Shown in pieces: positions 4,957 through 54,644 of a stretch of 64,000 bases of DNA. The notes under the pieces were generated by a model that was not told where the DNA came from, made no database searches, and saw only the letters and a program-made list of their open reading frames with translations. This DNA is from an uncultured Dialister sp. (GTDB taxonomy: Bacteria > Bacillota > Negativicutes > Veillonellales > Dialisteraceae): NCBI RefSeq assembly GCF_900538805.1, contig NZ_UPZP01000001.1:555-64554 (forward strand), given 5' to 3'. The position numbers and the translations under genes are program-made. Each line of letters starts with the position of its first letter. Position 1 is the stretch's first letter.

Positions 4957-5540
4957 TTTGCTTTACAAAGGTGGGGCCTCTGCGCCCCACGGGTTCAGAG
5001 GGTTCCCCTTCGGGCGCGAAAGGTTCTTAAGATTGGCCAGCCTAAAGGCCGGAGGGTTCTTAAGTTTGACGGGCCCAGGGCCCGAAGGTTGTGGTATCGC
5101 TCTCGGGGGCGATAATTATGAAGTAAGCGTTACGTACTTGCCTTCCCGCCCTCACCGTCATTCTGAACGCAGTGAAGAATCTCGGTAAGTGCCGTAGTTG
5201 AAGAAATCGGTAGTGAATACCAGTCGGCGGGAAGGCTGCGTCATTAGGCGTCGAAAAATAGCGGTATCAGTTCTTTCGGCCCTATCCTCAGGGCTTCGCC
5301 CAGCTCCTTCCTGAGGAAGGAGCCAGCGTTACGGGATTTACGCTATTGTCACCATGACTACATGGCGAAGAGCAAGAGCCTCCTTCCACAAGCAGAAGTC
5401 CTGCAGAGGGCTTCTGGGCCGGGCTATTATGTGAGCAAAGCCTGCACATAAAGCGAACACCTTAATGCCCGGCCAGCAGGTGGCGCCGTTAGGCGACGGA
5501 GGATAGGGGCGTGGATTAGACGTCAGACGTCAAACTAAAT
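4957..5540. repeat. Composite intergenic repeat element, locus 1.
   Basis: Contains GGTTCTTAAG / GGTTCAGAG short tandems, the hairpin atcgctctcgggggcgat, the core CCTTCCCGCC..GTCATTCTGAACGCAGTGAAGAATC..CAGTCGGCGGGAAGG, and a 200-bp module that recurs at 10570-10760. Confidence 0.8.
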
Positions 5541-5624
5541 TACATGCCTTGCCTCCTCCTGCTTGTCAGGGGAAGAGGCGATGGAGGCGGCAGAGGATAG
5601 CTGGCCTTTCGCAAGGGACTTGAT

Positions 5625-5895
5625 GTAGCTCTATGCTTTCCTGTCATTTCGAGCGATGGCCAGCGCCGGTATGAATCCTCCTTTACATGGAGCCAGTGAA
5701 AGGGAGTCGAGAAATCTCCCTTCTGCATGGCCCCTGTCAATGATGTGGCTCTATGCTTTCCTGCCATTTCGAGCGATGGCCAGCGCCAGTATGAATCCTC
5801 CTTTACACGGAGCCAGTGAAAGGGAGTCGAGAAATCTCCCATCCGAATGGTCCCTATCAATAATGACTGATTTTAGTGTAACTCCGGTTTTCCTT
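5625..5895. repeat. Two tandem copies of a ~120-bp unit (TGCTTTCCTGTCATTTCGAGCGATGGCCAGCGCC...).
   Basis: Direct repeats start at 5631 and 5751 with near-identical sequence. A third copy lies at 23805-23950. Confidence 0.85.
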
Positions 5896-5939
5896 ACTTC
5901 ATTAACGCTCCTTACTGTGGAAGGGGGCCTGATGTACTG

Positions 5940-6120
5940 CCATTTTCCTTCCCACCCGCTCTTCATCCTGAGCGCAGCGAAGAATGAAGAGCGGGCGGGA
6001 AGCCGACAGCCAGAAGCCGACAGCCGAAAGCCGAAAGCCGCCTTCACTGTCCCACTCTCCCACTATCCCACTAGCACACTAGCCCACTAGTACACTAGTA
6101 CACTAATACACCAGCCCACC
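5940..6120. repeat. Core hairpin variant plus GCCGAMA and CCCACTAG-type short tandems.
   Basis: A 12-bp perfect stem cccgctcttcat / atgaagagcggg closes the loop CCTGAGCGCAGCGAAGA. It is followed by gccgacagccgaaagccgaaagccg and cccactagcacactagcccactag... Confidence 0.8.
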
Positions 6121-6186
6121 AGCCACCTTTCCTCTCCGCTTCCTATCCATTATAATAAGTATATAAAAATATAGAAAAGAGGTCCT

Positions 6187-10439: not shown

Positions 10440-11060
10440 AAAGGTTGACGGGCCTGAAGGCCCGAAGGGGCTTTGCCCTGCGGGCAAAGGGTTGTGTTCG
10501 CTTTGCTCAGGGGGCGACGGCCCTTCAGGCCGAGGGTTGTGGTATCGCCGCTTCGCGGCGATGAGTATATAGTCAGCGTTACGGGATTTACGCTTGTGTC
10601 AACAGTGCTGCATGACGTAGAGCCGGAGCCTCCTTCCTTAAGCAGAAATCAGCAACATTTCTGAGCCGGGCTAATATGTGAGCATAGCCTGCACACAAAG
10701 CGAACACCTTAAAGCCCGACCAGCAGGTGTCGCCGCAGGCGACGGAGGATAGGTCCGAATTTTCATGACTTGGCTGTTATGCCTCTCCCGTCTTCCTGCT
10801 CACCGGTATGTAGCGGCATTGGACTCACTAACGTCACGCGCCGAAGAACCCCTTCGCCACTTCGTGGCCCTCTTCGCCCCGCTGGGAAGCGTGTCACTGG
10901 ATTCTCAGTCGTCTACCGACTCCCTGCGAATCCAGTTCCCTTGCCACCTAAAAGGGGACGCGAGCACTGCGTTCAGAATGACGGGCCCCGCAGGAAGTCT
11001 CCGCAGCGTCTGACGTCTGATGTCTGACCGTCTGACTGTCTTTTCCTCCCCTGGCATTTC
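10440..11060. repeat. Composite intergenic repeat element, locus 2 (left arm of the inverted pair flanking gyrA).
   Basis: GC hairpins and the REP-like hairpin atcgccgcTTCGgcggcgat. The 200-bp module is shared with 5320-5520. Region 10760-11040 is the reverse complement of parts of 14530-14900. Confidence 0.85.
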
Positions 11061-11074
11061 GACCGCAACGCAAA

Positions 11075-11114
11075 AGAGACAGTGAAGAAATATCGTCATT
11101 TCTTCACTGTCTCT
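11075..11114 (-). terminator. Hairpin terminator downstream of gyrA (bidirectional).
   Basis: agagacagtgaagaaatatcgtcatttcttcactgtctct followed by T-rich sequence. Confidence 0.65.
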
Positions 11115-11137
11115 TTATTTCATCAAAGGATTTCTTT

Positions 11138-13913: not shown

Positions 13914-14423
13914 ATGAAGAAATACCTGGCAGCCATTGTGATTGCCATCCTGCTCCTGGGGGGCGGCGGCTATTTTGCCTACGTCCATTTCATCAGCGGC
14001 GGTCCCTGGCAGGGTACCTGGTGGGGTGTGCAGGACGCCGGCGTGAACTGGTCCGGCGACCATATACGGAACCTGGAAACCGTGACCTTTACCAAAAACG
14101 ATGATAAAACCATTACCGTAGAACATAAAGTGCAACAGGGCAGCAAAGAAGTAAACGGCTCCCTGTCAGGCACCGGCACCGTAGACGGCGGCCGCCTGGT
14201 GATTACTCCCGCCAAGGGAGGCAAGGAAATCGCCCTGTCCTACAATACCATGTCCAAAACCATTGAGACCCCTCTTACCAATGCAGACAAAACAGCGGTG
14301 ACCCTTGAGGCCCTCACCCAGGACAACAACGATGAAATGGAGCAGATTCGGAGCGAAATCGTACAGATTTCCCAGAAGCCGGAAAATAAAATCGACACCA
14401 CCCTGTCCTCCTCTAAGAGCTGA
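13914..14423 (+). CDS. Hypothetical membrane-anchored protein.
   Basis: N-terminal transmembrane segment (MKKYLAAIVIAILLLGGGGYFAYV) followed by a soluble domain; GAAGGA precedes the ATG; a terminator follows. Confidence 0.6.
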   Translation: MKKYLAAIVIAILLLGGGGYFAYVHFISGGPWQGTWWGVQDAGVNWSGDHIRNLETVTFTKNDDKTITVEHKVQQGSKEVNGSLSGTGTVDGGRLVITPAKGGKEIALSYNTMSKTIETPLTNADKTAVTLEALTQDNNDEMEQIRSEIVQISQKPENKIDTTLSSSKS

Positions 14424-14434
14424 ATTGCATAATG

Positions 14435-14479
14435 AAAAGGCTATGAAGAAATATCAGGCATTTCTTCATAGCCTTTTTT
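14435..14479 (+). terminator. Rho-independent terminator.
   Basis: aaaaggctatgaagaaatatcaggcatttcttcatagcctttttt. The loop core tgaagaaatatcNNcatttcttca is shared with the 11075-11114 terminator. Confidence 0.7.
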
Positions 14480-14519
14480 GTTGATGATAGTTTCGAAATA
14501 ACATTGGAGCGGGAAATAC

Positions 14520-14930
14520 GGTCAGACGGTCAGACATCAGGCTTCAGATGCTGCGGAGCCTTCCTGCGGGGTCCGTCATTCTGAACGCAGTGCTCGCGTC
14601 CCCTTTTAGGGCCACGCAGTGGCGAAGGGGTTCTTCGGTACATGACAGTAGAGGGAAAAAGACAGTCAGACATCAGACTTCAGACGGTCAGACTTCAGGC
14701 TCCGCGGAGCCTTCCTGCCGGGTCCGTCATTCTGAACGCAGTGAAGAATCTCGGTACATGACGGTAGTGAGCCTAATGCCGTTAACTACCGGTGAGCAGG
14801 AAGGCGGAAGAGGCATCACAGCCACGCAGCGTAGAGCAGGGAGCTTTTTTCCGCTCCTCTTCGCTGCGGTCGAAATGACAATAGAGTGTCTGATGTCTGA
14901 TAGTCTGCCTGTCTGATAGAATCCTCAGCC
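14520..14930. repeat. Composite intergenic repeat element, locus 3 (right arm, inverted relative to locus 2).
   Basis: GTCAGAC-type tandems and two copies of the core gtcattctgaacgcagtg... flanked by CCTTCCTGC..GCAGGAAGG. Confidence 0.85.
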
Positions 14931-16059: not shown

Positions 16060-16345
16060 CCTTTGGGCCGCTTCGCGGCCCGGGTTCAAAAGGTTCAGTG
16101 GGAAAGGTTGACGGCGCCTTCGGCCCCGAAGGTTCTAAAGGTTCTAAGGTTTGACGCAGCCTGCGGCTGCGAGGGTTGTGGTGGCGGCTGCGCCGCAATT
16201 ACAGCCTGCGTTACATGCCCTGCCTCCCCGCCCCTGCGGTCATACTGAGCGGAGCGAAGAATCTTGGTACCGGCCGATAGTGATGCCAACTAGTCCACCA
16301 GCCCACTAGTTCACCAATCCACTAGCACACCAGCCCACCAGCTCA
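16060..16345. repeat. Composite repeat element, locus 4.
   Basis: ggccgcTTCGgcggcc hairpin, GGTTCAAAAGG tandems, core gtcatactgagcggagcgaagaatcttgg, then CCACTAG-type tandems. Confidence 0.8.
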
Positions 16346-17401
16346 CTAGTACACTATTCTCTCCACAAACGCCGCCAGTCTGGCGTGGGGGCCGGCCAGG
16401 GGAATTTCTCTGTATTCTTCCGGCGTAAACCAGCGATATTCTCCTTCCGGCACCGATGCCCCTTCCACAGGATAGGCCTTCATGTGCCATATGCGGTGGG
16501 TGAAGACATGTTTATATTTCCAGAGGAAGCCTTCCGTGTTTCCGTGAAGAAGCTGCTCCAGGCCTTTCCGGGCTTCTTCTTCCGTTTCTCCAAGGACCAT
16601 GGGGAATTCCCACATGGAGGCCAGCATGCCCTTTGACGGTCTTTTATGGAGAAGCACTTTTCCTTCCTCTATCCAGATGCCGCAGGCCGCCTGCTCTTCC
16701 TTTGGCGGTTTTTTAGGTGTGCGGAAGGGGAGCTCCTTTTCTTTTCCATTTCTAAAGGCCCGGCACTCTCCTGCCAGCGGGCAGGCGCTGCAGCGGGGAT
16801 TTTTCGGTATGCATATTTCAGCGCCCAGGTCCATCAGGGCTTCGTTGAAGTCACCGGCCCGCTGCGGCAGGGTCTCATTCACCAGAGCTTCGATTTCCTT
16901 CCTGCCCCGGCTCTTTAATATATCTTCTTCCACCTGGTAAAGGCGGGCATAGACGCGGAGCACATTGCCGTCGATGGCACCTTCCCGCTGCCCGTAGGCC
17001 ATGGAAAGGATAGCGCCGGCGGTATAGCCGCCTATGCCCGGCAGAGCCAGAATGTCCTCCTTTCGGTCAGGAAGAGAGCTGTCGTATTTTTCTTCCATTT
17101 CCCGGGCGGCCTTATGGATATTCCGGGCGCGGCTGTAGTAGCCAAGGCCCTGCCACTGATGAAGCACGTCCGCTTCCTCTGCCTCCGCCAGGTCATGGAT
17201 GGTAGGGAATTTTTCCATCCAGCTGTTGAAATAGGGTTTCACCGCTTCCGTCCGGGTCTGCTGCAGCATGATTTCAGAAATCCACACATGGTAGGGATTC
17301 CTGGGCTTGTCCTCCCGCCAGGGAAGGTCCCTTTTGTGACCGTCGAACCAGGACAAAAGGATTTCCGGCCAGTCTTTTCCCGGTATGTCTTTTTTCATCA
17401 T
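16346..17401 (-). CDS. mutY: A/G-specific adenine DNA glycosylase MutY.
   Basis: HhH-GPD motifs (LPGIGGYTAGAIL), a 4Fe-4S cluster loop (C-x6-C-x2-C-x5-C), and a NUDIX-like C-terminal domain. Confidence 0.92.
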   Translation of the reverse strand: MMKKDIPGKDWPEILLSWFDGHKRDLPWREDKPRNPYHVWISEIMLQQTRTEAVKPYFNSWMEKFPTIHDLAEAEEADVLHQWQGLGYYSRARNIHKAAREMEEKYDSSLPDRKEDILALPGIGGYTAGAILSMAYGQREGAIDGNVLRVYARLYQVEEDILKSRGRKEIEALVNETLPQRAGDFNEALMDLGAEICIPKNPRCSACPLAGECRAFRNGKEKELPFRTPKKPPKEEQAACGIWIEEGKVLLHKRPSKGMLASMWEFPMVLGETEEEARKGLEQLLHGNTEGFLWKYKHVFTHRIWHMKAYPVEGASVPEGEYRWFTPEEYREIPLAGPHARLAAFVERIVY

Positions 17402-18407: not shown

Positions 18408-18707
18408 GGCGTCCTTCGGGCGCAAAGGTTCTTAAGTTTAACCGGCCTGATGGCCGGAGGGTGTTGGTTTGACAGGCCCTTGCGGGCCTGAGGGTTGTGT
18501 GGAGGGAGAATACTGAGCCCCAGACGAAGAATTCCGGTGCCTGCCAATAGTGATACCCACCAGCCGATAGCCCACTAGCTCACCAGCCCACTAGCTCACC
18601 AGCCCACTAGCCCACCAGCCCACTAGCTCACCAGCCCACCAGCCCACTAGCCCACTAGCCCACTAGCCCACTAGCCCACTAGCCCACCAGCCCACTAAGA
18701 ACATTAT
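18408..18707. repeat. Composite repeat element, locus 5, ending in a long CCCACTAG/CCCACCAG array.
   Basis: GGTTCTTAAG modules and cUUCGg hairpins, followed by ~20 tandem 8-mers (18540-18700). Confidence 0.85.
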
Positions 18708-18723: not shown

Positions 18724-18757
18724 GAAAAAAACGGCGCAGCCCATGCTGCGTCGTTTT
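18724..18757 (-). terminator. Rho-independent terminator downstream of skp.
   Basis: The minus-strand RNA aaaaacgacgcagcatgggctgcgccguuuuuuu forms a hairpin followed by a U-run. Confidence 0.7.
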
Positions 18758-18767
18758 TCCGTTTTCA

Positions 18768-22249: not shown

Positions 22250-22800
22250 AAGGGCGGCGGAGCCGGGTTCATGGACACGCCCTGACGGGCGTGAGGGTTC
22301 AAAAGGTTCAAAAGGTTCAAAAGGTTCAGAAGGTTCAAAGGGTGGTGGTATCGCCTTCGGCGATGAGTTTTATAGAATGCCGCTCCGTGGCAAGGAAACA
22401 TAAAGTCAGCATTATGCGACTCCCTCCCGCCGGACATGGTCATTCTAAGCGCAGCGAAGAATCTCGGTACACGGCAGCAGTGAATCACAGGCCGATAAAT
22501 ACCAGTCGGCGGAGAAGTACTACGATTCATACCGTAAACGTCTTAAGCCGGAACACCAGCACACCAGCTCACTAGTCTACGAGAACACTAAGCAGAGCAT
22601 TACATGACTTCCTCCCGCCGGACAGGGTCATTCTGAGCCGTAGGCGAAGAATCTCGGTACGCGGCAGCAGTGACTCATAGGCCGATAAATGCCAGTCGGC
22701 GGAGAAGTACTACAGTACATGCCGATAATGCCTCAGACTAGTACACCAGCTCGCCAGCCCACTAAAGAATCCCAGTCGGCGGGAAGGCATCGTCGGCGCC
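22250..22800. repeat. Composite repeat element, locus 6.
   Basis: GGTTCAAAAG x5, the hairpin atcgccTTCGgcgat, two core copies (gtcattctaagcgcagcgaagaatctcgg / gtcattctgagccgtaggcgaagaatctcgg), each followed by ...ccagtcggcggagaag, and CCACTAG tandems. Confidence 0.85.
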
Positions 22801-23516: not shown

Positions 23517-24300
23517 GGATTTCTCCACTTTATTGTGTCCCCGCTTGCGGGGTGGCAGGCGAACTTGGTTCGTAGGGGAGCAATAGCGACCTGAGAACCA
23601 AGTGAGACGCTTTCCTGTGGAGAAAGGTGGTGGCGTCAGCCACCAAAGGGGGCCCGCAGGGCGCGGCGGGTTGAAGGGTGATGGTGCTATGGGTCCATTC
23701 CGTGGACTGGGTTCATAGGGTTCATAGGGTTCAAGGGTTGTGGATTTCCGCCTTTGGCGGCAATGATTATAAAGTCAGCGTTACATGCTTACCCTTTGTA
23801 TCTCCAGTGCTTTCCTGTCATTTCGAGCGATGGTCATCGCCGGTGTGAATTTCCCTTTACATGAAGCCATTGAAACGGAGTCGAGAAATCTCCTCCCTGA
23901 ATGGCCCCTGTCAATAATGACTGATTTTAGTATAATTCCGGTGTTCCTCCCCTATTAAAGTTCCTTTCTCTGGAATGAGACTGCGTTACGTACACCCCAG
24001 ACAGGTCATTCTGAGCGCCAGCGAAGAATCTTGGTAAGAACTGTAAGTAACATAAACGCCAGTAAATACCGGCAGCCCGGAAAACGTACCAAATGACTCT
24101 TCACTTCCCGCGGCAGTCATTCTGAGCGCCAGCGAAGAATCTTGGTAAGAGCTGTAAGTGACAAGAACGCCAGTAACTACCGGCAGCCAGAAAAGCATGC
24201 TGAATGACTCATCCTCTTCCCTAGAAAACGTCTGAAGCCGGAAGTCTATCTTCTATCTTCTATCTTCTATCTTCTACCTTCTATCGTCTATCTTCTACCT
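23517..24300. repeat. Composite repeat element, locus 7.
   Basis: GC hairpin series, GGTTCATAGG tandems, one copy of the 120-bp unit (23805-23950), two tandem ~110-bp units in reverse orientation (23990-24235), and GATAGAA tandems. Confidence 0.85.
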
Positions 24301-24316
24301 TCCCATATTCTCCACT

Positions 24317-24346
24317 AAAAAAGAGCCCGTGAGAGCTCTTTTTTAG
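24317..24346 (-). terminator. Bidirectional hairpin terminator.
   Basis: aaaaaagagc-ccgtgaga-gctctttttt. Confidence 0.6.
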
Positions 24347-24564
24347 TCTTCCTTATTTTCCTCTTTTTTCCTCATGGCTTCTTCTCTCTGCTTATGGGCC
24401 CGGTCGTAGGCGCCGGTCCGTTTGAGGGCCATGGAAATGACGGCCACCACGGCACAGAGAAGAATGAAAAGGTTCACCGTAGTGACCCCTTCGCCAAAGC
24501 CGATACGGTAGATGGAGTAGAAGAGAACCACCACCAGCAGGAAATCCTGAAATTTTGAAAACAT
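24343..24564 (-). CDS. Small membrane protein (73 aa), hypothetical.
   Basis: Two hydrophobic helices and a basic, charged C-terminus; GGAGGAAGG lies 5 nt before the ATG. Confidence 0.5.
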   Translation of the reverse strand: MFSKFQDFLLVVVLFYSIYRIGFGEGVTTVNLFILLCAVVAVISMALKRTGAYDRAHKQREEAMRKKEENKED

Positions 24565-29370: not shown

Positions 29371-29535
29371 GGCTGCGCCTATTGGGCGCGAATGGGTTCA
29401 GAGGGTTCAGAGGGTTCAGAGGGTGATGGCAGCGGCTGCGCCGCAGTATTTAGCCTGCGTTACATACTTTCCTTCCCGCTTCCCTAGTCATCCTGAATGT
29501 TGATAAATCCCAATCGGCGGGAAGGAATGCAAATA
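29371..29535. repeat. Composite repeat element, locus 8 (short form).
   Basis: GGTTCAGAG x3, the hairpin gcagcggctgcgccgc, and ccttcccgc..gtcatcctgaa..caatcggcgggaagg. Confidence 0.75.
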
Positions 29536-30546: not shown

Positions 30547-30649
30547 GGTTGTCCCTTTCACAATAAAAGAAACGGCATGATTCACTGCCGTTTCTTTCCA
30601 ATGAATAACTGTCAGTCATTATTATAGTCGTTCTTATGGAGGTGTCAAA
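30547..30649 (-). promoter_or_regulatory. Sigma-70 promoter plus a short leader with an intrinsic-terminator-like hairpin upstream of the TerC-family gene.
   Basis: Minus strand reads TTGACA-17-TATAAT. The leader carries gaaagaaacggcagugaaucaugccguuucuuuuauug before the SD. Confidence 0.45.
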
Positions 30650-30661
30650 TGGATGAGAAAT

Positions 30662-31360
30662 TAGACGATAGAAGATAGAAGATAGATGGTAGATGGTAGA
30701 CGATAGAAAATAGATGATAGACTTCAGACTTCTGGCTTCCGGCTTCAGACGTTTTCTAAGGAAGAGGATGAGTCATTCAGCATGCTTTCCGGACTGCCGG
30801 TATTTATTGGCATTTCTGTCACTTGCGGTTCTTACCAAGATTCTTCGCTTCGCTCAGAATGACTGCCGCGGAAGGAGAAGAAAGAAGCATTCGGCATGCT
30901 TTCCGGACTGCCGGTATTTACTGGCATTTCTGTCACTTACGATTCTTGCCAAGATTCTTCGCTGGCGCTCAGAATGACCGGCGTGGAGAGGAGAAAGAAT
31001 CATTCAGCATGCTTTCCGGACTACCGGTATTTACCGGCGTTCCTGTCAATTACGACTCTTACCAAGATTCTTCGCTGGCGCTCAGAATGACCGGCGTGGA
31101 GAGGAGAAAGAAGCATTCAGTATGCTTTCCGGACTGCCGGTATTTATTGGCGTTCCTGCCACTTGCAACTCTTACCAAGATTCTTCGCTGGCGCTCAGAA
31201 TGACCGGCGTGGAGAGGAGAAAGAATCATTCGGCATGCTTTCCGGACTGCCGGTATTTACCGGCGCTTCTATCACTTACAATGCTTACCAGGATTCTTCG
31301 CTGGCGCTCAGAATGACCGGCCCCGGGAACGGCGCCAAGGACACGAAGCCGGAAACCTAA
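30662..31360. repeat. GATAGAA / GCCGGAA tandems followed by a 5 x ~113-bp tandem array.
   Basis: Units begin at 30781, 30896, 31009, 31122 and 31235. Each reads ATGCTTTCCGGACTGCCGGTATTTA-(variable 25 nt)-ACCAAGATTCTTCGCTGGCGCTCAGAATGACCGGCGTGGAGAGGAGAAAGAA. Confidence 0.9.
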
Positions 31361-31367
31361 AGCCCTC

Positions 31368-33212: not shown

Positions 33213-35408
33213 TTAACCTTCCCTGGCTTCAGCTTTAGCGCGGTCTACAAGAATCTGCAGAAGTTCGATGCAGCACTTCGGGATGTTGGTGCCCGGTCCG
33301 AAGATGGCGGTGGCGCCATGGTCATAGAGGAACTGGTAGTCCTGGGGCGGGATAACGCCGCCGATGCAGACGAGGATATCGCTGCGGCCCCGTTTCTTCA
33401 GTTCTTCCACCAGAGCAGGAAGCAGTGTCTTGTGGCCTGCTGCCAAAGAGGAGAAGCCAACAATATGAACATCGTTATCTACGGCATCCTGGGCAGCTTC
33501 TTCCGGTGTCTGGAAGAGAGGACCTACGTCCACGTCCCAGCCCATGTCGGCAAAGGAGGATGCCAGTACCTTCTGGCCTCTGTCGTGTCCGTCCTGGCCC
33601 ATCTTGCAGAAGAAGATACGGGGGCGGCGGCCTTCGAGCTGTTCAAATTCATCAATCAGTTTCTTGGCCTTGTCAAACTGTCCGTTATCCTGGAATTCGC
33701 TGGAGTAAACGCCGGATACGGTATGGATGGTGGCGTTGTAGCGGCCGGATACCTTTTCCACGGCGTCGGAAATTTCACCAAGGGAGCAGCGGTCATGGGC
33801 TGCCTGTACGGCGGCATCCAGAAGGTTGCCGTTTTCGCGGCTTTCCGCACATTTGGTGATGTGTTCCAGATCCCGGCGTACCTTTTCGGGGTCCCGGATG
33901 GAGCGAAGTTTTTCAAGGCGCTTAATCTGTGCGTTCCGAACGGCGGTGTTATCTATGGAGAGGACGTTCAGCGGATCTTCCTTGGCCAGACGGTACTTGT
34001 TCAGGCCTACGATGGTTTCTCTGCCGGAGTCGATGTCTGCCTGGCGGCGGGCAGCGCATTCCTCGATACGCATCTTCGGAAGGCCGGTGGCAATGGCCTT
34101 GGCCATGCCGCCCAGGGATTCCACTTCCTGGATATGGGCCCAGGACCGTTTAATCATTTCATTGGTCAGGTATTCCAGGTAGTAGGAGCCGCCCCAGGGG
34201 TCGATAATCTTGCAGACTTTAGTTTCATCCTGGATATAGAGCTGTGTATTTCTTGCCAGACGGGCGGAGAAATCTGTCGGCAGTGCGATGGCTTCATCCA
34301 GCGCATTGGTGTGCAGGGACTGGGTGTGGCCCAGAGCTGCGGACATGGCTTCCATACAGGTCCTGGTGATGTTGTTGAAGGGGTCCTGTTCGGTGAGGGA
34401 CCAGCCGGAGGTCTGGGAATGGGTACGGAGGGCCATGGATTTAGGATTCTTGGCGCCGAAGCCCTTCAGAATCTTGGCCCACAGCACTCTGGCGGCCCTC
34501 ATTTTGGCCACTTCCATGAAGTAGTTCTTGCCCTGGTCCCAGAAGAAGGACAGACGTTTGGCGAAGGCATCCACCGGCAGTCCTGCTTTTTCGCCGCAGC
34601 GGATGTATTCCATGCCGTCGGCCAGGGTGTAGCCCAGTTCCAGGTCGCAGGTAGCGCCGCATTCCTGGATGTGGTAGCCGGAAATGGAAATGGAGTTGAA
34701 TTTCGGCATGTACTTGGTGGTGTATTCGAAGATATCGCCGATGATGCGCATGGACATGGCCGGCGGATAGATGTAGGTGTTGCGGACCATGAATTCCTTC
34801 AGGATATCATTCTGGATGGTGCCCTGGAGAATCTTCCTGTCCACGCCCTGTTCAATGCCGGCGCAGATGAAGAAGGCCAGGATAGGAAGGACGGCGCCGT
34901 TCATGGTCATGGATACGGACATCTGGTCCAGCGGAATGCCATCGAAGAGGATGTTCATATCCAGCATGGAACATACCGATACGCCTGCCTTGCCCACATC
35001 GCCTACAACGCGGGGGTTGTCCGCATCGTAGCCGCGATGGGTTGGAAGGTCGAATGCAATGGACAGCCCTTTCTGTCCGGCAGCCAGGTTTCTTTTATAG
35101 AAAGCGTTGGATTCTTCGGCGGTGGAGAAGCCGGCGTACTGGCGTACGGTCCATGGACGGAATACGTACATGGTGGAGTATGGACCTCTCAGGAAGGGCG
35201 GGATGCCGCTCATGAAATCCAGATGATTGCATTCTTTGTAAATGTCCTTGGTGTAGAGCGGACCTACGGGGATACGTTCCAGGGTGGTGTCATACAAATC
35301 ATTGTAGGATTTGCCGGTGGTTTCTTCCAGGTCCTTTTTCCAGGTGTCGTAATCGCAGGAAGGATGGGCTTCCAGGTCGAGTTTTGTGAAATCGGGATTC
35401 ATTGCCAT
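33213..35408 (-). CDS. mutB: Methylmalonyl-CoA mutase large (catalytic, B12-binding) subunit.
   Basis: TIM-barrel substrate domain ([40 protein letters not shown]) and a C-terminal cobalamin domain with DGHDRG. AGAGGAGG upstream. Confidence 0.95.
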
Positions 35409-37802: not shown

Positions 37803-38065
37803 AAAAAAGCCGGCACCTATAGATGGCAGCCGGTAAAAGGGACGCTGTGTCCCAATCCCCTCCCCATCGCTCGCAGGTTTGCGGAAACACTGAGTAACCA
37901 GTGCTTCCTTAACGGTGATTCATTGACAGATAGTTCTCCTGGCTCGGATTCCTCATGCCTGCTCGCCTTCCCAGGTTTCCCCAGTGACATCATTGAGCAG
38001 GTACTCCTCCTTACAGTGGCGGGACCGCTCCGGCTTATACCGGATTCTCTTTTATGCTTACGCAT
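37803..38065 (-). ncRNA. Candidate cobalamin riboswitch with an intrinsic terminator in the 5' leader of mutA-mutB-meaB.
   Basis: The minus-strand RNA contains ..AGAGAAUCCGGUAUAAGCCGGAGCGGUCCCGCCACUGUAAGG.. matching the conserved GGUG.AA.UCC...GC.G.CCCGC.ACUGUAA.G core. A B12-box-like GAGCCAGGAGAACU lies ~75 nt downstream. The hairpin accggcugccaucuauaggugccggcuuuuuu follows. Confidence 0.5.
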
Positions 38066-38104
38066 CTGTCAGCAATGTGAAATTGTCCAAAAGACTACAG
38101 TCAC

Positions 38105-38280: not shown

Positions 38281-38760
38281 ATGGTGAATAAGGAAATCGA
38301 AATGGAAAGACAGAAATCGGTGGAACTGACAAAGCAGTTTGCAGAGCAGGAAGGAAGACGTCCCCGTATGTACATTGCGGAAATGGAAGAGGATGGCTCA
38401 AAAGAACAAAGAAAGCTGGCTGCCACCACCTTTGCCGATGCCGGCTGGGACGTGGACGTGGGCTCCCTGGAAACGCCGGAAGATACAGCCCGAAGCGCCG
38501 TGGACAACGACGTCCATTTCATCTACTACACGTCGGACAGCCTAAACAGGGTGCATCTCCTCATAGAGCTGGAAAGGGCCCTCACCCTTCTGGGACGGGA
38601 TGATATCCTTATCGCCCTCCATCAGGGCACAGAAGGCGAAAAAGAAGACCTCTTCCGCTACGGTGTGGCCGCCGTCTTCCCCAGGGACTACCCCCTGGAA
38701 CAGGCAGGCCTCACCATGCTGGGTCTCCTCATGGCACAGGCTCAGGAAGAGGAGTCGTGA
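38281..38760 (+). CDS. Standalone B12-binding-domain homologue lacking the DxHxxG motif.
   Basis: Alignable to the mutB C-terminus (RPRMYIAEMEEDGSKEQRKLAATTFADAGWDVDVGSLETPEDTARSAVDNDVH versus [54 protein letters not shown]). The His ligand is replaced. The start may be ATG 38302 (AAGGA 7 nt upstream). Confidence 0.6.
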   Translation: MVNKEIEMERQKSVELTKQFAEQEGRRPRMYIAEMEEDGSKEQRKLAATTFADAGWDVDVGSLETPEDTARSAVDNDVHFIYYTSDSLNRVHLLIELERALTLLGRDDILIALHQGTEGEKEDLFRYGVAAVFPRDYPLEQAGLTMLGLLMAQAQEEES

Positions 38761-38764
38761 TAGT

Positions 38765-38930
38765 TGTTAGACGAAAGACGATAGAAGATAGAAGATAGAA
38801 GATAGAAGATAGAAGATAGAAGATAGAAGCAGGACATTGGAAGGATAGAGAATAAAAGAAAGATGGCTGCAGAAAACCTGCAGCCGGAAGCCAACAGCCA
38901 GTAACCGGAAGCCGATAACTCCCCTATTTT
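38765..38930. repeat. GATAGAA x ~8 and GCCGGAA-type heptamer tandems.
   Basis: gatagaagatagaagatagaag... followed by gcagccggaagccaacagccagtaaccggaagccgataac. Confidence 0.85.
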
Positions 38931-39026
38931 CCGTCGTCAATGACGCACCATTTCACCAGAAAGGACGTTTTCACTTCTACCTGCTGCGTCGTGTTGTCAA
39001 CACAGCTGGCGACGTATTTATGCAAT

Positions 39027-39058
39027 AAAAAAAGCAGTGCCGAAGCACTGCTTTTTTT
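39027..39058. terminator. Bidirectional Rho-independent terminator.
   Basis: aaaaaaagcagtgc-cgaa-gcactgcttttttt; serves the minus-strand decarboxylase operon and the plus-strand 38281 gene. Confidence 0.75.
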
Positions 39059-39078
39059 ATGCGTAGTTCAAGCTGGGA

Positions 39079-39495
39079 TTAGCCAACGGTGAACAGCGGA
39101 TCGCCGCCCTGTACGGACTGGCCTTCAGTAACCTGCATGGAGGTAACCTTGCCATCGCAAGGAGCCATGATCGGGTTGCCCATCTTCATAGCTTCCAGAA
39201 CGAGGACTTCGTCGCCGGCTGCTACTGCATCACCAACATGTTTGTTGATGCGGATAACTTTACCAGGCATCGGAGCTTCAACGGATTCGCCTGCACCTGC
39301 AGGAGCTGCTGCCGGAGCGGGAGCCGGAGCCGGTGCTGGAGCCGGAGCCGGAGCTGCTGCCGGAGCCGGAGCTGCTGCTGGAGCTGGAGCTGCTTTCGGA
39401 GCTGCTGCCGGAGCCGGAGCTGCTGCTGCAGCGCCGCCATCTTTAACTACTACATCGTAATCCTGGCCGTTAACTGTTACAGTAAATTTTCTCAT
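39079..39495 (-). CDS. mmdC: Biotin carboxyl carrier subunit (methylmalonyl-CoA decarboxylase gamma / 1.3S-like) with an Ala/Pro linker.
   Basis: C-terminal biotinyl domain with EAMKM; long (AP)n linker; AGGAGG 7 nt upstream. Confidence 0.9.
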   Translation of the reverse strand: MRKFTVTVNGQDYDVVVKDGGAAAAAPAPAAAPKAAPAPAAAPAPAAAPAPAPAPAPAPAPAAAPAGAGESVEAPMPGKVIRINKHVGDAVAAGDEVLVLEAMKMGNPIMAPCDGKVTSMQVTEGQSVQGGDPLFTVG

Positions 39496-43496: not shown

Positions 43497-45158
43497 TTAA
43501 AGGGTGTTGTGCGGTTTGTATTCGCCGAATACTTTACGGAGAACGCCGCAGATTTCGCCTTCGGTGCAGTAAGCACGTACGCAGTCGAGGATGACTGGCA
43601 TAAGGTTAACATGGTCAGGACCTTCAGCCGGAGTCTGAGCTGCTTTTTCAAGTTTAGCCAGTTCTTCAGCAACCTTAGCCTGGTCACGGTTTTCCTTATC
43701 CTTAGCGAGCTGAGCTTTCTTTCTTTCGCCAACGGAAGCATCAATCTTCAGCAGGCCGGTAACCGGCGGTTCTTCCATGGTGAACTTGTTGACGCCAACG
43801 ATTGTTCTTTCGCCGGATTCAACAGCCATCTGCCAAGCATAAGCAGAATCCTGAATTTCTTTCTGGATGTAGCCTTTATCAATAGCTTCTACAGCGCCGC
43901 CCATTTCGTCAATCTTCTTGATGTAAGCCATAACTTCTTCTTCGATGGCGTTGGTCAGTGCTTCAACATAGTAGGAGCCGCCGAGCGGATCAACTACGTC
44001 AGCCAGGCCGGATTCGTAAGCAACGATCTGCTGGGTACGGAGAGCGATGGTTACGGATTCAGTGGTCGGAAGAGCCAGAGCTTCATCGCGGGAGTTGGTG
44101 TGCAGGGACTGGGTGCCGCCCATAACTGCTGCTGCGGTCTGGAGAGCAACACGGATGATGTTGTTGTTCGGCTGCTGAGCGGTCAGCATGGAGCCTGCGG
44201 TCTGGGTGTGGAAACGAAGTTTCATGGACTTCGGGTTTTCAGCATGGAATCTTTCTTTCAGGATTCTAGCCCAGATACGACGGGAAGCACGGAACTTAGC
44301 AACTTCTTCGAGTACGTTGTTGTGAGCGTTCCAGAAGAAGGACAGACGTGGAGCGAATTCATCAATCTTCATGCCTGCTTTCAGAGCTGCTTCGATGTAA
44401 GCAATACCATCGGCAATGGTGAATGCAACTTCCTGAGCAGCGGTGGAACCAGCTTCACGGATATGGTAGCCGGAAATGGAAATGGTGTTCCACTTCGGTA
44501 CGTTTGCGGAGCAGTATTCGAAGATATCGGTAATCAGACGCATGGACGGTTTAACCGGGAAAATGTAGGTGCCGCGTGCTGCGTATTCCTTGAGGATATC
44601 GTTCTGAATGGTGCCGCGGAGTGCGGATGCCGGAACGCCCTGTTTTTCAGCTACTGCAATGTACATAGCCAGCAGGACGGAAGCCGGTGCGTTGATGGTC
44701 ATGGAAGTGGAAACTTTGCCAAGATCAATGCCGTCGAACAGTCTTTCCATATCGTAGAGGGAGTCGATAGCTACGCCTACTTTACCAACTTCGCCAGCAG
44801 ACATTTTGTCATCGGAGTCATAGCCGATCTGGGTCGGGAGGTCGAATGCAACGGACAGGCCGGTGCCGCCGTTAGCAATCAGGTATTTATAACGTTTGTT
44901 GGATTCTTCAGCGGTGGAGAAGCCAGCGTACATACGCATGGTCCACAGACGGCCGCGATACATGGTGGGCTGTACGCCACGGGTGTATGGATATTCACCA
45001 GGGAAACCGAGGTCTCTTTCATAGTCGAAACCTTCGAGATCGAGTGGTGTGTACAGGTTCTTATGTTTCAGACCAACTCTTTCCGGATGTTTTGCAACCT
45101 GTTTTGCATATTCTGCATTGTAGGCATCAAGTTTAGCTTTCAGGGATTCGTTAGACAT
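43497..45158 (-). CDS. Acyl-CoA (methylmalonyl-CoA-type) mutase large catalytic subunit, lacking a B12 domain (split mutase).
   Basis: TIM-barrel mutase domain ([40 protein letters not shown]); ends without a cobalamin domain. AGGAGG upstream. Confidence 0.9.
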
Positions 45159-45365
45159 GAGTTCATCTTCCTCCTAAAAAAGTAAGTATGTAACTATCTG
45201 GAAGTCTGTCCCTTTTTCATGGGAACCGCGGCTTTGTGCTCTTCTTGTTCCATTTCCGGGGAAAACTTCCGTCAGGGTTCCGCAAAGGCTTTCGCTGCTG
45301 CAGCGATCGTTTGAATCTTCTTGCAGCAGCTTTCGGACTCTTGCGAGACCCATGTGTATGACACT
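45159..45365 (-). promoter_or_regulatory. ~200-nt structured 5' leader of the split-mutase operon.
   Basis: Lies between the predicted promoter and the SD. Contains a 9-bp hairpin gcugcugca..ugcagcagc and other GC helices. Confidence 0.35.
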
Positions 45366-45390
45366 GTCATTGACAGCTATCACCATAGGT

Positions 45391-45418
45391 AATTATACAA
45401 TATTTGGATTATTTGTAA
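45391..45418 (-). promoter_or_regulatory. Putative sigma-70 promoter for the split-mutase operon.
   Basis: Minus strand reads TTTACA-16-TGtATAAT (extended -10). Confidence 0.45.
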
Positions 45419-45447
45419 AGTATTAAAGCACTTCTTGAAAAATTAAA

Positions 45448-46995: not shown

Positions 46996-47489
46996 TACTA
47001 TCATCCTCCCAAAAATGAAAAATAAATTATATAAAAGTCCGCAGCCGCAAAACCTGATGACTCTCGTCAGCATTGCCGCAGAACTTTTTACCCTCAAAAA
47101 AAACAGCCGCCTAATCCATGTGGAATGAGTTCATCTTAAGATTATGTATCTCCGGAAACAGTAATACTATAATCACAAGACCAAACCCTCCAATCGTAAG
47201 ATTTTGCTGACTGCATTTTGGCTCATTCAATCACCAGTATTATTATAACACACTTTTCCCTATGAAAACCCCCTAAATGAACCATTTGTCTTACAAAATC
47301 CTTTTTACCCATTATAAATAATTCCTATTAGACAAATTATGGATTACGTGACCCATAACCCTATATTTACAAATGCCTCGATTAATTGACGCAAAATTAA
47401 TTGAAATATTTCCATCTATAGCCTTCCATGACATGTATATGGAAATTTATGAATCGCGCCAAAATCATGTATGAATGGGGAAAAGGATT

Positions 47490-47583
47490 AGTGAGCTAGT
47501 GATCTAGTGATCTAGTGAGCTAGTGAGCTAGTGAGCTAGTCCACCAGCCCACTAGTACACTAGCCCACCAGTACACCAGTTCA
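47490..47583. repeat. CTAGTGA / CCACTAG-type tandem array.
   Basis: gtgagctagtgatctagtgatctagtgagctagtgagctagtgagctagtccaccagcccactag... ends at the stop codon of the ligase gene. Confidence 0.85.
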
Positions 47584-48801
47584 CTTCCTGCAGGATGCGC
47601 AGAGTGCCGAGAGGCTCCAGAAGCAGAAGGACACGGAGCGGCTGAAGAGGACGTGGTCTCCCATGCTGATGACCGAGAGGGCCATGACCATGAGGACGCC
47701 GCCAAGGCCCATGGATTTCGTGAAGCTGTCATTTCCATGGCGGTAATTTCTCCAGCAGAGGATTCCCTGGGCAAAGAATGCCAAAAGAAAGGCCATGCCG
47801 CCGGGGATTCCCACCTCTGCCAGCATGTTGAGGTACATGTTGTGGGCGTGGAAGATGAGCACTCCCTCTTCCTGGATGAAGAAATTATAGTCCGGATAGG
47901 CCAGGAAATAGGCCCCCCAGCCCACGCCCAGAAGAGGATGCTCCTCTATCATGGCCATGGTGCTTTCCCACAGAGCAAAGCGCAGGTCCACGGACGTATC
48001 TTCCCCGGAAAAGAGGGAGAGGAACCGTTCCACCACCTGCCCGTGGTAGAAGGCCAGCACCACCGGCACCAGAAGGAAGAGGAGGCCGAACCTTTTATCA
48101 TAAAAGAGAGTAAGCCCCAGCACGATGGCTGCCAGGCTGACCCAGGCGCCCCTGGAATAGGTAAGGGCCAGGCATAGAAGAAGGGAAAGAAGAATCACCG
48201 CAAAGACGGTCTTTTTCTTCACCGCCCTCTCCCGTAAGGTAAAGGCAGTGAGGATGCTGATGATCATGAGAAGATAGGCACCGAAAAGATTCGGGTTCTC
48301 CAGGGTGGAATACATACGCCTCCGAAGGAGGGGGAACCTTTCCGGGTCCACCCAGCTCTGGGCTTCCATATCCGCCGCCATATCCGCCGCATTGGCATAC
48401 TGGAAAAATCCGTACACCACCGTCACCACGGCTCCCGCCAAAAAGGCATAGAGGGCTTTCTCCTTTTCCTTCTCCGTGGAAACGGTGGTATAGATAAGAA
48501 GGTACACCAAGGCATACATCAAGGGCTGCAGCGCCCAGTTCATGAAAGAAAAGGCCATGTCCTTCGACACGAAGGCGGACAGAAAGGAGCACACCAGAAA
48601 AACAGCCCCCAGCTGCCAGAGAGGCGGGAGCGCAAGTGCCACTTCCCCCTTCTTCCTCCAGTTATACAGCCATGCCACCACGGCTGGCAGAAGGGTGACA
48701 TAAAAAAGAAAGGGGTTCAAAGGCAGCAGAAAAAGAGTAGCATAGAGCAGGTACAGAATATGCTGCTTCGAACAAAGACCATTTTCAGAAACTTTCCCCA
48801 T
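47581..48801 (-). CDS. O-antigen ligase / Wzy_C-family membrane protein.
   Basis: About 10 transmembrane helices with a central periplasmic loop carrying the YSRGAWVSL motif region. GGAGGA 5 nt upstream. Confidence 0.7.
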   Translation of the reverse strand: MGKVSENGLCSKQHILYLLYATLFLLPLNPFLFYVTLLPAVVAWLYNWRKKGEVALALPPLWQLGAVFLVCSFLSAFVSKDMAFSFMNWALQPLMYALVYLLIYTTVSTEKEKEKALYAFLAGAVVTVVYGFFQYANAADMAADMEAQSWVDPERFPLLRRRMYSTLENPNLFGAYLLMIISILTAFTLRERAVKKKTVFAVILLSLLLCLALTYSRGAWVSLAAIVLGLTLFYDKRFGLLFLLVPVVLAFYHGQVVERFLSLFSGEDTSVDLRFALWESTMAMIEEHPLLGVGWGAYFLAYPDYNFFIQEEGVLIFHAHNMYLNMLAEVGIPGGMAFLLAFFAQGILCWRNYRHGNDSFTKSMGLGGVLMVMALSVISMGDHVLFSRSVSFCFWSLSALCASCRK

Positions 48802-48879: not shown

Positions 48880-49215
48880 CCATGGACCGCTTCGCGGCCG
48901 GGTTCAAAGGGTTCAAAGGGTTCAAAGGGTTCAGAAGGTTCAGAAGGTGATGGTATCGCCGCTTTTGGCGGCGATGAGTATAAAAAGAGCGTTACGGGAT
49001 TACCTTCCAGCCCTGCTCGTCATTCCAAGCAAAGCGAAGAAGCATGGTACGTGCCGCGATTGAGACAATCAGCAGCAGACCAATTCAGCCAGTAAATTTC
49101 TCCGTTTCCGACCGTCGAAATGATGATGGAACGGAGCCGATGCATTCCTGAAAGTGAAGGTTTCGGTCAGCCCACTGCAGAATCCCAGGCAGCGGGAAAG
49201 CGTCAGGCACTTGCA
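48880..49215. repeat. Composite repeat element, locus 12.
   Basis: ggaccgcTTCGgcggcc hairpin, GGTTCAAAGG x5, atcgccgcttttggcggcgat, and the core cgtcattccaagcaaagcgaagaagc. Confidence 0.8.
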
Positions 49216-53059: not shown

Positions 53060-53455
53060 AATGGCCCGCCTGCGGCGGGCCGGGTTTAGAGGGGAAGGTT
53101 CTTAAGATTGACCGGCCCCTTGGGCCGGAGGGTTCTTAGGATTGACGGCCCATGGGACCGAGGGTTGTGGTATCGCCGCCTTTGGCGGCGATGAGTTTTA
53201 TAGTCAGCGTTACGGGTCTGCCTTCCCGCCGAGCAAGTCATTCTGAACGAAGCGAAGAATCTTGGTGAACGCCGCCAGTGATTCATCTGTCGATAAATAT
53301 CAATCGGCGGGAAAGAGGCGTCTGATAGTCTGATGTCTGCCATCTCTCTTGCTTTCGGGAATACAGCCAAAAGTCGGCGGATAGCGGCAAGCGGTAAGCG
53401 GACAGCGGATAGCGGATAGCTGTATCACCCCAGCTCACTAGTCCACCAGCCCACT
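53060..53455. repeat. Composite repeat element, locus 13.
   Basis: GGTTCTTAAGATTGAC modules; atcgccgcctttggcggcgat; ccttcccgccga..gtcattctgaacgaagcgaagaatcttgg..tcggcgggaaag; GCGGATA and CCACTAG tandems. Confidence 0.85.
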
Positions 53456-54592: not shown

Positions 54593-54600
54593 GGAAGCAT

Positions 54601-54644
54601 AAAAAAACGGGATACCATGGATTTCCAGGGTATCCCGTTTTTTC
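54601..54644. terminator. Bidirectional terminator.
   Basis: aaaaaaacgggatacc...ggtatcccgtttttt. Confidence 0.65.

Follow-up and report, generated by a model that had tools for sequence, protein, structure and literature searches.

Modular palindromic intergenic repeats in a gut Dialister and a possible partnership between their core hairpin and a small GIY-YIG nuclease

The DNA considered here is a stretch of 64,000 nucleotides from an uncultured Dialister sp. (NCBI RefSeq assembly GCF_900538805.1, contig NZ_UPZP01000001.1, positions 555 to 64,554), referred to below as the window, in which 13 intergenic loci carry mosaics of short repeats. These loci had been listed in a sequence-only reading of the window. 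They were now read directly, and each was found to be built from one common kit of non-coding modules. With a probability of roughly 0.55, the loci are non-coding palindromic modules of the Dialister lineage, in which a short hairpin of the conserved core (hairpin A) is the recognition structure of a nuclease and the cores are non-autonomous derivatives. The candidate nuclease is a small GIY-YIG protein, encoded beside the same hairpin in other phyla.

Two independent assemblies contain the window sequence at 100% identity, which excludes an assembly artefact. A gene map was drawn from public-assembly gene calls and the scoring of open reading frames (ORFs). The modules occupy 13 of the 16 intergenic gaps of at least 250 bp, which makes the earlier wording that almost every larger gap carries them a fair one, and the loci total about 6 kb, or 9% of the window. 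The gaps free of modules are a cobalamin-riboswitch leader, the region upstream of gyrA and 45159-45447. Self-comparison of the window by BLAST gave 97 non-self matches, all within the listed loci except for two coding cases (one paralogous methylmalonyl-CoA mutase gene pair and one low-complexity coding repeat), and also revealed four extra small pieces beyond those loci (11060-11119, 14431-14520, 39025-39060 and 54602-54643). A covariance model of the core detected 19 copies in the window at E < 0.05, of which 12 are full length and all are intergenic. The core 26-mer, with at most 3 mismatches allowed, occurs six times against 0.00 expected, and AGCGTTACG five times against 0.12; GGGTTGTGGT alone is not significant, with 7 copies against 3.4 expected. 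No gene explains the family, as had been noted before: the ORFs inside the elements have no Pfam match.

The kit described earlier consisted of short GC hairpins alternating with GGTTCAAAR or GGTTCTTAAGATTGAC units, a palindrome resembling repetitive extragenic palindromic (REP) sequences (ATCGCCGC-loop-GCGGCGAT, then GAGTWTATAGTCAGCGTTACG), a conserved core (CCTTCCCGCC...GTCATTCTGAGCGNAGCGAAGAATCTYGGTA...CAGTCGGCGGGAAGG) and arrays of 7-8-nt units. Each of these parts was seen again; units of 120 nt and of about 190 nt (module X) had not been named and are added here. Tandem Repeats Finder and a repeat search confirmed the arrays of the octamer CCCACTAG, of the 9-mer GGTTCAAAR and of the heptamers TCTATCT/TAGAAGA, GTCTGAC, AGCCGAC and GCGGATA. 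Longer tandems are formed by a 113-nt unit (4.8 copies, 30773-31321), a 120-nt unit (two copies, 5621-5865) and a 190-nt unit (1.8 copies, 22418-22764).

The family is not confined to this region. A scan of human-gut metagenomes with the core pattern returned at least 119 stretches (1.07 Mb, median 52% GC) with at least 107 distinct core sequences, and it shows the family to be genome-wide and polar. The modules share one orientation and follow a fixed order, 5' to 3': GC hairpins with GGTTC units, the REP-like palindrome ending in GCGTTACG, the core of about 95 nt, and the 7-8-nt arrays. Thus GCGTTAC lies at most 60 nt upstream on the same strand in 48 of 93 unique cores, against 3 downstream and 1 reversed, and tandems of the GGTTC 9-mer lie upstream (within 400 nt) of 39 of the 93, against 10 downstream (within 300 nt) and none reversed upstream. 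The modularity likened earlier to that of BOX elements, and resembling that of bacterial interspersed mosaic elements (BIMEs), is real, and its order is kept throughout the genome. In 0.84 Mb of viral contigs and 0.85 Mb of DNA from other phyla, modules other than hairpin A are missing or no commoner than chance would have them, which makes them Dialister-specific within the sample.

Alignment of the cores shows 10-nt arms (CCTTCCCGCC/GGCGGGAAGG), hairpin A and a second hairpin, GGTA-N30-TACC. Hairpin A reads ATTCT-GA-GC-GNA-GC-GA-AGAAT, and the core hairpin as a whole, 26-30 nt long, can be written TGTCAYYCTGA-(GCGNAGC or GCGNNAGC)-GAAGRRTCTC, with tandem G·A pairs. The RNAalifold consensus of the core was weak, with only 8 pairs, and a hand-specified structure was tested instead. 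Across 75 sequences, 92% of the cells were standard pairs, compared with 35-59% when the partners were slid. Compensatory changes from G-C to A-U occur in the apical stem and from C-G to U-A in the arms. The pattern of covariation speaks for a simple hairpin in which the 2x2 G·A loop is symmetric. Readings of CUGA...GAAG as a hammerhead, a kink-turn or a box C/D motif were rejected, as the register is wrong. Both G·A pairs of hairpin A stand in the context 5'-Y-GA-R-3', in which DNA tends to form tandem sheared G·A pairs, the d(ATGAGCGAAT) duplex being an example.

The apex of hairpin A in the cores is GCGNAGC, GCGNNAGC or GCC-GNA-GGC. The variants include, letter for letter, both consensus forms of the DNA mini-hairpins, d(GCGNAGC) and d(GCGNNAGC), covered by a 2026 review (PMC13037366). 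Such mini-hairpins are extraordinarily stable as DNA and much less so as RNA, resist nucleases and are bound poorly by single-stranded-DNA-binding protein (PMC13037366). The likeness extends to the placing of the apex on a 5-bp stem, as in the promoter hairpins of phage N4. However, the published examples are single functional sites of phages or plasmids (PMC13037366), whereas hairpin A is dispersed in many copies, has tandem G·A pairs in addition and keeps its flanks conserved.

The hairpin is widespread outside Dialister. When one genome per species was scanned for GTCATTCTRARCG(N1-2)AGYGAAGAATCT, at least 120 stretches came up, and the IMG/VR viral collection gave 94 more. The hosts span more than 15 phyla, candidate-phyla bacteria among them, and include Nitrospirota, Acidobacteriota, Chloroflexota, Bacteroidota, Planctomycetota, Saccharibacteria, Gracilibacteria, Omnitrophota, Ignavibacteria, Deltaproteobacteria and Clostridia, among others. 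In these phyla hairpin A is intergenic in 94 of 102 scored cases, without orientation bias; tandem arrays occur, and an inverted partner stands no more than 150 nt off in 89 of 262 copies and at 10-40 nt in a third. The foot TGTC is conserved.

The stem covaries in this wider set. Where its pairs were not forced by the search pattern, 85 of 91 copies are paired, with five Watson-Crick stem types; the counts are TT/AA 34, TC/GA 34, CC/GG 7, TG/CA 5, CT/AG 2, TT/GA 2 (a wobble) and TA/TA 1. Among 39 loosely anchored partner copies, 37 double-sided changes were counted; shuffling gave 10.9 +/- 3.0, and none of 500 shuffles reached the observed number. The covariation score is 0.38, against at most 0.137 for slid partners. 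Within an inverted pair, the stems of the two copies often differ yet are each compensated internally, which indicates that each 26-mer folds on itself.

When the ORFs near hairpin A in other phyla were clustered, a small GIY-YIG protein emerged, and its assignment was confirmed with Pfam (PF01541). At six motif-selected loci the gene begins 30-145 nt after hairpin A, and at three of the six a second hairpin stands about 40 nt past its stop codon. A search by protein alone returned 1896 relatives, and the contexts of eight were fetched, representing six distinct loci. In all six, hairpin A lies directly upstream and/or downstream of the gene, in the form of inverted pairs, a four-copy 38-nt tandem or hairpins with an expanded apex. 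Seventeen motifs fall in the 4.9 kb within 200 nt of GIY-YIG genes and four in the other 16.9 kb, a local enrichment of roughly 15-fold. The best 120 of the 1896 relatives are 67-100% identical to the query and come from different phyla; within this set, proteins of about 95 aa from Saccharibacteria, Deltaproteobacteria, Chloroflexota, Nitrospirota and Syntrophales are 67-75% identical. Such identity is unusually high for hosts so distant and suggests horizontal spread.

It is proposed that hairpin A acts as DNA, either single-stranded or extruded, and that it may be the recognition structure of the GIY-YIG nuclease in the way that REP sequences serve their transposases. The Dialister cores would then be non-autonomous derivatives wrapped in lineage-specific arms. 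Clusters would be seeded and afterwards grow or shrink by recombination and slippage, and they could be substrates for rearranging neighbouring genes. In the window, inverted element copies of about 350 bp bracket gyrA (10771-11119 with 14431-14824), and inverted copies of about 310 bp bracket a 6.4-kb gene block (24004-24302 on the plus strand with 30671-30979 on the minus strand); both pairs are potential inversion substrates. A wider view is put forward more tentatively, as one that is possible rather than probable: hairpin A and small GIY-YIG proteins of the COG2827 type might form a pan-bacterial, horizontally spreading repeat-plus-nuclease system, with mosaics like those of Dialister as non-autonomous offspring that drive the gain, loss and inversion of cassettes. 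Such a system would be analogous in structure to REP/RAYT, but with another nuclease fold and with an ultra-stable DNA mini-hairpin for its handle.

Several points weigh against the main reading. A GIY-YIG homologue was looked for in 1.13 Mb of sampled Dialister DNA and not found, which means that the partner enzyme of this family is either missing or unsampled. The adjacency of hairpin and nuclease gene elsewhere could also mean that the GIY-YIG gene homes into hairpin sites. None of the events seen was an insertion that had defined ends or had duplicated its target site, and recombination alone can explain every polymorphism examined. The fixed module order is unexplained by any hypothesis tested; in particular, independent insertion of separate elements does not account for it. 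Covariation within Dialister is modest, as the copies are young, similar and partly fixed by the search pattern. Nearest-neighbour DNA energies of the isolated hairpin A are no better than those of shuffled sequences. Standard parameters do predict its expected fold, and the missing special stability is explained by the fact that the mini-hairpin and G·A motifs are not parameterised. The structural claim therefore relies on covariation and not on energy, while the claimed stability draws on published special motifs outside the energy model. Lastly, the orientation test described below used gene strand as a proxy for replication direction.

The alternative that survives best, although it is unlikely, is that the repeats are passive and need no dedicated nuclease or transposase: clusters would arise and spread solely through host recombination, gene conversion and slippage involving palindromes already in place, and the cross-phylum hairpin would recur simply as intrinsically stable DNA. 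The differences between strains speak for it. All strain polymorphisms examined were of the recombination, slippage or microhomology type, and neither a transposase nor a GIY-YIG gene was found in the Dialister sample. One strain has a single hybrid core where another has two cores in tandem, the product of unequal homologous recombination. Between strains, one heptamer array changes in length by 84 bp (12 units), a unit of about 90 nt in module X is present or absent, and indels of 90-270 bp end at microhomologies of 4-6 nt or at similar hairpins. Cassette-style exchange of modules occurs too. At the largest scale, three assemblies carry a 6.6-kb cassette with genes for LamB/YcsF, Nramp, allophanate-hydrolase-like subunits, biotin carboxylase and D-Glu cyclase between direct copies of the 113-nt unit (14098-14385 and 20951-21261 in L003, L005 and L006); the corresponding window site, 30586-31367, holds the tandem array alone, with 4.8 copies of the unit. 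These comparisons, which belong to the main reading as well, show that strains differ by unequal recombination, array slippage, microhomology deletions and the gain and loss of composites and cassettes. In a more divergent Dialister (L004, genes 83-95% identical), orthologous gaps hold decayed copies or none.

None of the comparisons of filled with empty sites, nor any cross-phylum pair, showed a target-site duplication for the repeat family. This applies also to the idea of a miniature inverted-repeat transposable element (MITE) of the DDE type: the core arms CCTTCCCGCC/GGCGGGAAGG resemble terminal inverted repeats, yet no duplication accompanies them. Of the suggestion that the elements are self-propagating or recombination-driven, the second half stands, since recombination does reshape the clusters; self-propagation may be suggested by composites at sites which are empty in other strains, but they bear no visible signature of transposition. 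Against a purely passive origin, composites have appeared at sites without an earlier repeat, and the hairpin is tightly linked to one nuclease family. Moreover, a near-identical stretch of 26 nt is shared by more than 15 phyla, and the likeness extends to its unpaired flanks (84% of copies have T at position -1, and GTCA and TCT are conserved), which argues for a shared reader and not for convergence.

A second alternative, rather improbable, is that the loci are structured RNA elements made from one strand, such as small RNAs, stabilisers of untranslated regions or processing sites. Several modules do fold more stably than shuffled sequences (z -2.3 to -6.7), the helices show the compensatory changes given above, and the elements of the window lie between gene ends and the next promoters. 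Core orientation is near-uniform in the window (plus strand). However, this strand bias, striking in the window and seemingly tied to transcription or replication, was gone in 83 contigs: the arrangements of flanking genes relative to the core are 18/18/21/13 across metagenome loci, in gene-strand-biased contigs 35 core loci run with the majority strand and 42 against it, and 18 multi-locus contigs have mixed core orientation against 15 with a uniform one. Orientation is thus random genome-wide and the uniformity in the window is local. Mismatches in the arms are of the G·U type in 52 cases and of the A·C type in 42, without strand asymmetry, and the apex is far less stable as RNA than as DNA. 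Orthologous sites in a related Dialister are decayed or empty instead of being conserved in place, and the RNAalifold consensus is weak. The family matches no Rfam entry: searches of the window at gathering score and at E up to 10 found only the cobalamin riboswitch and chance matches of microRNA models to a 60-nt palindrome, and at gathering score no family covers the hairpin at 18 cross-phylum loci. Random orientation, symmetric mismatches and the apex motif together fit DNA palindromes better than strand-specific RNA, so that the earlier expectation of RNA-level structure is not upheld, even though the helices themselves are real.

It is also conceivable, with still lower probability, that the loci are signals kept for the benefit of the cell, namely terminators, insulators or sites for gyrase, integration host factor (IHF) or primase. 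The binding of gyrase, IHF and Pol I to BIMEs in E. coli can be counted in favour of such a role. In the window, consensus-like minus-strand promoters of downstream genes lie just outside the hairpin end of several clusters (4951-4923, 22247-22219, 10354-10326 and 18404-18376), so that the clusters fill the interval that separates one transcription unit from the promoter following it. Mini-hairpins described in the literature work at primase sites, in origins of single-stranded phages and plasmids, and in phage N4 within its single-stranded promoters (PMC13037366). On the other hand, presence at the same site varies between strains and copy number changes freely. Promoters or terminators inside the modules were considered and rejected, as a scan places good promoters just outside and rarely calls modules as terminators. 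Intrinsic terminators fare no better: the GC hairpins of the modules are followed by GGTT units and have no T-runs, and true terminator-like palindromes are found outside the modules (e.g., 18727-18758 and 24314-24347).

The least probable alternative, with only a slight chance of being correct, is a classical REP or REPIN (paired REP) family moved by a REP-associated tyrosine transposase (RAYT, an IS200-like Y1 HUH transposase) encoded elsewhere in the genome: clustered extragenic imperfect palindromes, inverted doublets in other phyla, slightly favoured convergent contexts there (32 against 17 divergent) and the missing target-site duplication would suit it, but the foot of the hairpin is TGTC and not GTAG, REPs are lineage-specific while hairpin A occurs in many phyla, and the RAYT/IS200 partner suggested earlier was not found. 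Searches by tblastn with IS200 TnpA and E. coli RayT queries gave nothing significant in 1.13 Mb of Dialister (best E 1.3) or in 1.7 Mb around hairpin A in other phyla, a negative that is provisional; one marginal Y1/RAYT match turned out to be a type I restriction S subunit. When 150 small ORFs near Dialister cores were scanned with Pfam, the 25 families listed were all housekeeping ones.

The system resembles REP/REPIN-RAYT in its high-copy, short, extragenic imperfect palindromes, which are clustered and lack target-site duplications (PMC3116915, PMC3337134, PMC3479197). RAYT genes are flanked by REP sequences (PMC3116915, PMC3337134), and hairpin A in other phyla likewise flanks a small nuclease gene. 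REPs are often inverted doublets with a spacer; an inverted partner accompanies a third of the hairpin A copies in other phyla. The differences are that this gene is a GIY-YIG gene and not one for a Y1 HUH transposase, that REPs are lineage-specific and vertically inherited whereas hairpin A is common to many phyla, and that the Dialister core has a single hairpin A in a palindromic shell of about 95 nt, with the palindrome formed by other arms.

E. coli BIMEs similarly alternate palindromic units with a few conserved linker motifs, in set arrangements and variable number; however, their sequences are unrelated, they alternate orientations where Dialister clusters keep one polar order, and the Dialister clusters are larger (up to 1.2 kb), with structured units of about 95-190 nt and 7-8-nt arrays. 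BOX elements of Streptococcus pneumoniae and the NIME (neisserial intergenic mosaic element) and Correia repeats of Neisseria share the A-B(n)-C-like polarity with variable internal copies, the dense intergenic spread and a role in rearrangement and strain variation, but have no counterpart to the short-period arrays or the pan-bacterial hairpin and belong to other taxa. No Rfam match links the modules to BOX, BIME or Correia, and their sequences are not known to fit the consensus of any of these families; the resemblance is architectural only. The short tandemly repeated repetitive (STRR) sequences of heterocystous cyanobacteria are also intergenic 7-nt tandem arrays with several families per genome; here, by contrast, the host is a Negativicute, the arrays end composite elements, 8-nt units occur too, and the arrays differ in length from strain to strain.

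As a kind, dense mosaic repeats between genes are already known (BIME, BOX, NIME, REPIN, STRR), and the Dialister family adds a new one that is unusually elaborate. Hairpin A and the GIY-YIG protein are possibly a repeat-nuclease partnership, which would be new if confirmed; it would then give a function to a widespread orphan family of small GIY-YIG proteins and might be a second, independent origin of REP-like systems. In the library searched, whose scope does not amount to proof of novelty, no paper was found on the hairpin sequence, its translated peptides, Dialister repeats or GIY-YIG proteins with REP or palindromic repeats. If the share of about 9% holds genome-wide, the family takes up a large part of a small gut-bacterial genome. 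Its clusters mark differences between strains, among them the 6.6-kb metabolic cassette, indels beside promoters and the inverted copies bracketing gyrA, and are relevant to strain typing, breaks in metagenome assemblies and genome plasticity in an abundant human-gut genus. The parts and loci in the window are collected in Table 1.

Table 1. Repeat modules and loci in the window (bits, covariance-model score of the core).
Feature	Coordinates	Strand	Composition and remarks
Locus 1, left part	4970..5086	+	GC-rich hairpins alternating with GGTTCAGAG and GGTTCTTAAGWTTGAC units
Module M4	5087..5134	+	REP-like palindrome (ATCGC..GCGAT) with AGCGTTACG tail
Other M4 copies	10535-10583, 16174-16215, 22341-22416, 23736-23785, 48941-48996, 53163-53214
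Full core	5135..5241	+	arms CCTTCCCGCC/GGCGGGAAGG around hairpin A (5158-5180) and second hairpin GGTA-N30-TACC; 101.8 bits, E 6.5e-29
Module X	5321..5507	+	about 190 nt, contains AGCCTGCACAYAA; second copy 10571-10753; copies 82% identical over 187 nt; folding z -3.4
Family Z	5621..5865	+	two tandem 120-nt units; third copy 23797-23919
Mini core	5941..6009	+	hairpin A lengthened to a 60-nt perfect-stem palindrome; 30.2 bits; -37.5 kcal/mol, z -6.7
Terminal arrays	6000..6127	+	heptamer AGCCGAC, then octamer CCCACTAG
Locus 2	10440..11060	+	hairpin/GGTT units, M4, X, module Y, GTCTGAC array
Locus 2, degenerate inverted core pieces	10785-10895, 10913-11004	-
Locus 3	14431..14930	+	GTCAGAC arrays, core fragment, full core 14704-14810 (90.7 bits)
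Locus 4	16060..16357	+	hairpins with GGTTC units, M4, 3'-truncated core 16217-16291, octamer array
Locus 5	18408..18707	+	hairpins with GGTTCTTAAG units, degenerate core 18484-18581, 18 copies of CCCACTAG
Locus 6	22250..22800	+	hairpin, GGTTCAAAA x5, M4, two cores (22416-22523, 22605-22713) forming a 190-nt tandem
Locus 7	23600..24302	+	hairpins, GGGTTCATA x3.6, M4, one Z unit, TCTATCT x8
Locus 7, cores	23983-24090 and 24096-24201
Locus 8	29371..29535	+	hairpin, GGGTTCAGA x3.4, M4-like unit, internally deleted core 29465-29531
Locus 9	30656..31337	-	TAGAAGA array and five tandem 113-nt core units, minus orientation
Locus 10	38759..38930	+	arrays only: TAGAAGA x9, AGCCGAY-type heptamers
Locus 11	47489..47585	.	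inverted octamer arrays: TAGTGAGC x6.5, then CCCACYAG x6
Locus 12	48880..49215	+	hairpin, GGGTTCAAA x5, M4, insertion-interrupted core 48997-49205 (33.9 bits)
Locus 13	53060..53455	+	hairpins, GGTTCTTAAGATTGAC x2, M4, full core 53215-53321 (87.8 bits)
Locus 13, arrays			GTCTGAY, GCGGATA, octamer

Family Z is a relative of hairpin A, in which the foot and the G·A pairs (GTCATTTCGAGCG...GTCGAGAAATCTC) are kept and about 50 nt are inserted at the apex. A tRNA-like origin of the GGTTCAAA units was considered and dropped, as a search with ARAGORN yielded neither tRNA nor tmRNA in the window. Two octamer arrays span stop codons on the minus strand, one (16285-16356) that of a mutY-like gene (16346-17401) and the other (47536-47585) that of the gene at 47581-48801; slippage there could alter the C-termini.

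The Dialister of the window is close to D. succinatiphilus and is found in human-gut metagenomes. Its genes in the window are ordinary housekeeping ones, including ffh-rpsP-rimM-trmD, argininosuccinate lyase, ribonucleotide reductase, gyrA, mutY and tig-clpP-clpX-lon, together with a methylmalonyl-CoA mutase/decarboxylase propionate cluster behind a cobalamin riboswitch. No transposase is encoded in or adjoining the window, and nothing mobile lies past its right end. The riboswitch (37912-38084, minus strand, 91.8 bits) stands ahead of the methylmalonyl-CoA mutase operon and accounts for one large repeat-free gap. Genic repeat signals in the window are limited to the mutase paralogues (34276-35176 and 44065-44968, about 70% identical as DNA) and, in the biotin-carrier gene, a linker repeat rich in Ala, Gly and Pro (39275-39450).

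One site at a bidirectional terminator has three alleles: it is empty in the window (54592-54643), holds a 158-bp MITE in L356 and carries a composite of about 620 bp in L355. The AT-rich MITE has 19-bp terminal inverted repeats (CTAGGGAAGCACTGATTAA) and occurs also in L146 (3236-3395); it is a separate, classical element family of these genomes, unrelated to the repeat family. Large strain-specific insertions were examined as autonomous partners and rejected, as they are unrelated IS3 and IS21 elements and an integrase gene. These IS3- and IS21-family insertion sequences and the tyrosine-integrase segment lie in or beside clusters (L212 848-2308, L186 451-2927 and L215 4723-6980), and their ends are unrelated to the repeat family.

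Outside Dialister, some further features of hairpin A were noted. In five stretches from Acidobacteriota and Saccharimonadales (L014, L020, L042, L054 and L119), the hairpin pair is nested in a lineage-specific palindrome, ACAGGCTGCGGAAAAA...TTTTTCCGCAGCCTGT, which parallels the Dialister-specific arms around hairpin A. Viral hairpins recur near a shared ORF of 357 aa at 18 loci (L246-L339, e.g., L270 4156-5229, and L286), the opening residues of which look capsid-like by eye, and one viral contig of 9.8 kb carries seven copies, all on the same strand. In a Fibrobacter metagenome-assembled genome (L041, 7195-7220), hairpin A lies inside an ORF whose start looks by eye like a lipoprotein signal peptide (MKNSFPSVILSVAKNLAMLSIAAVMFVACGG), which indicates that the repeat can be translated.

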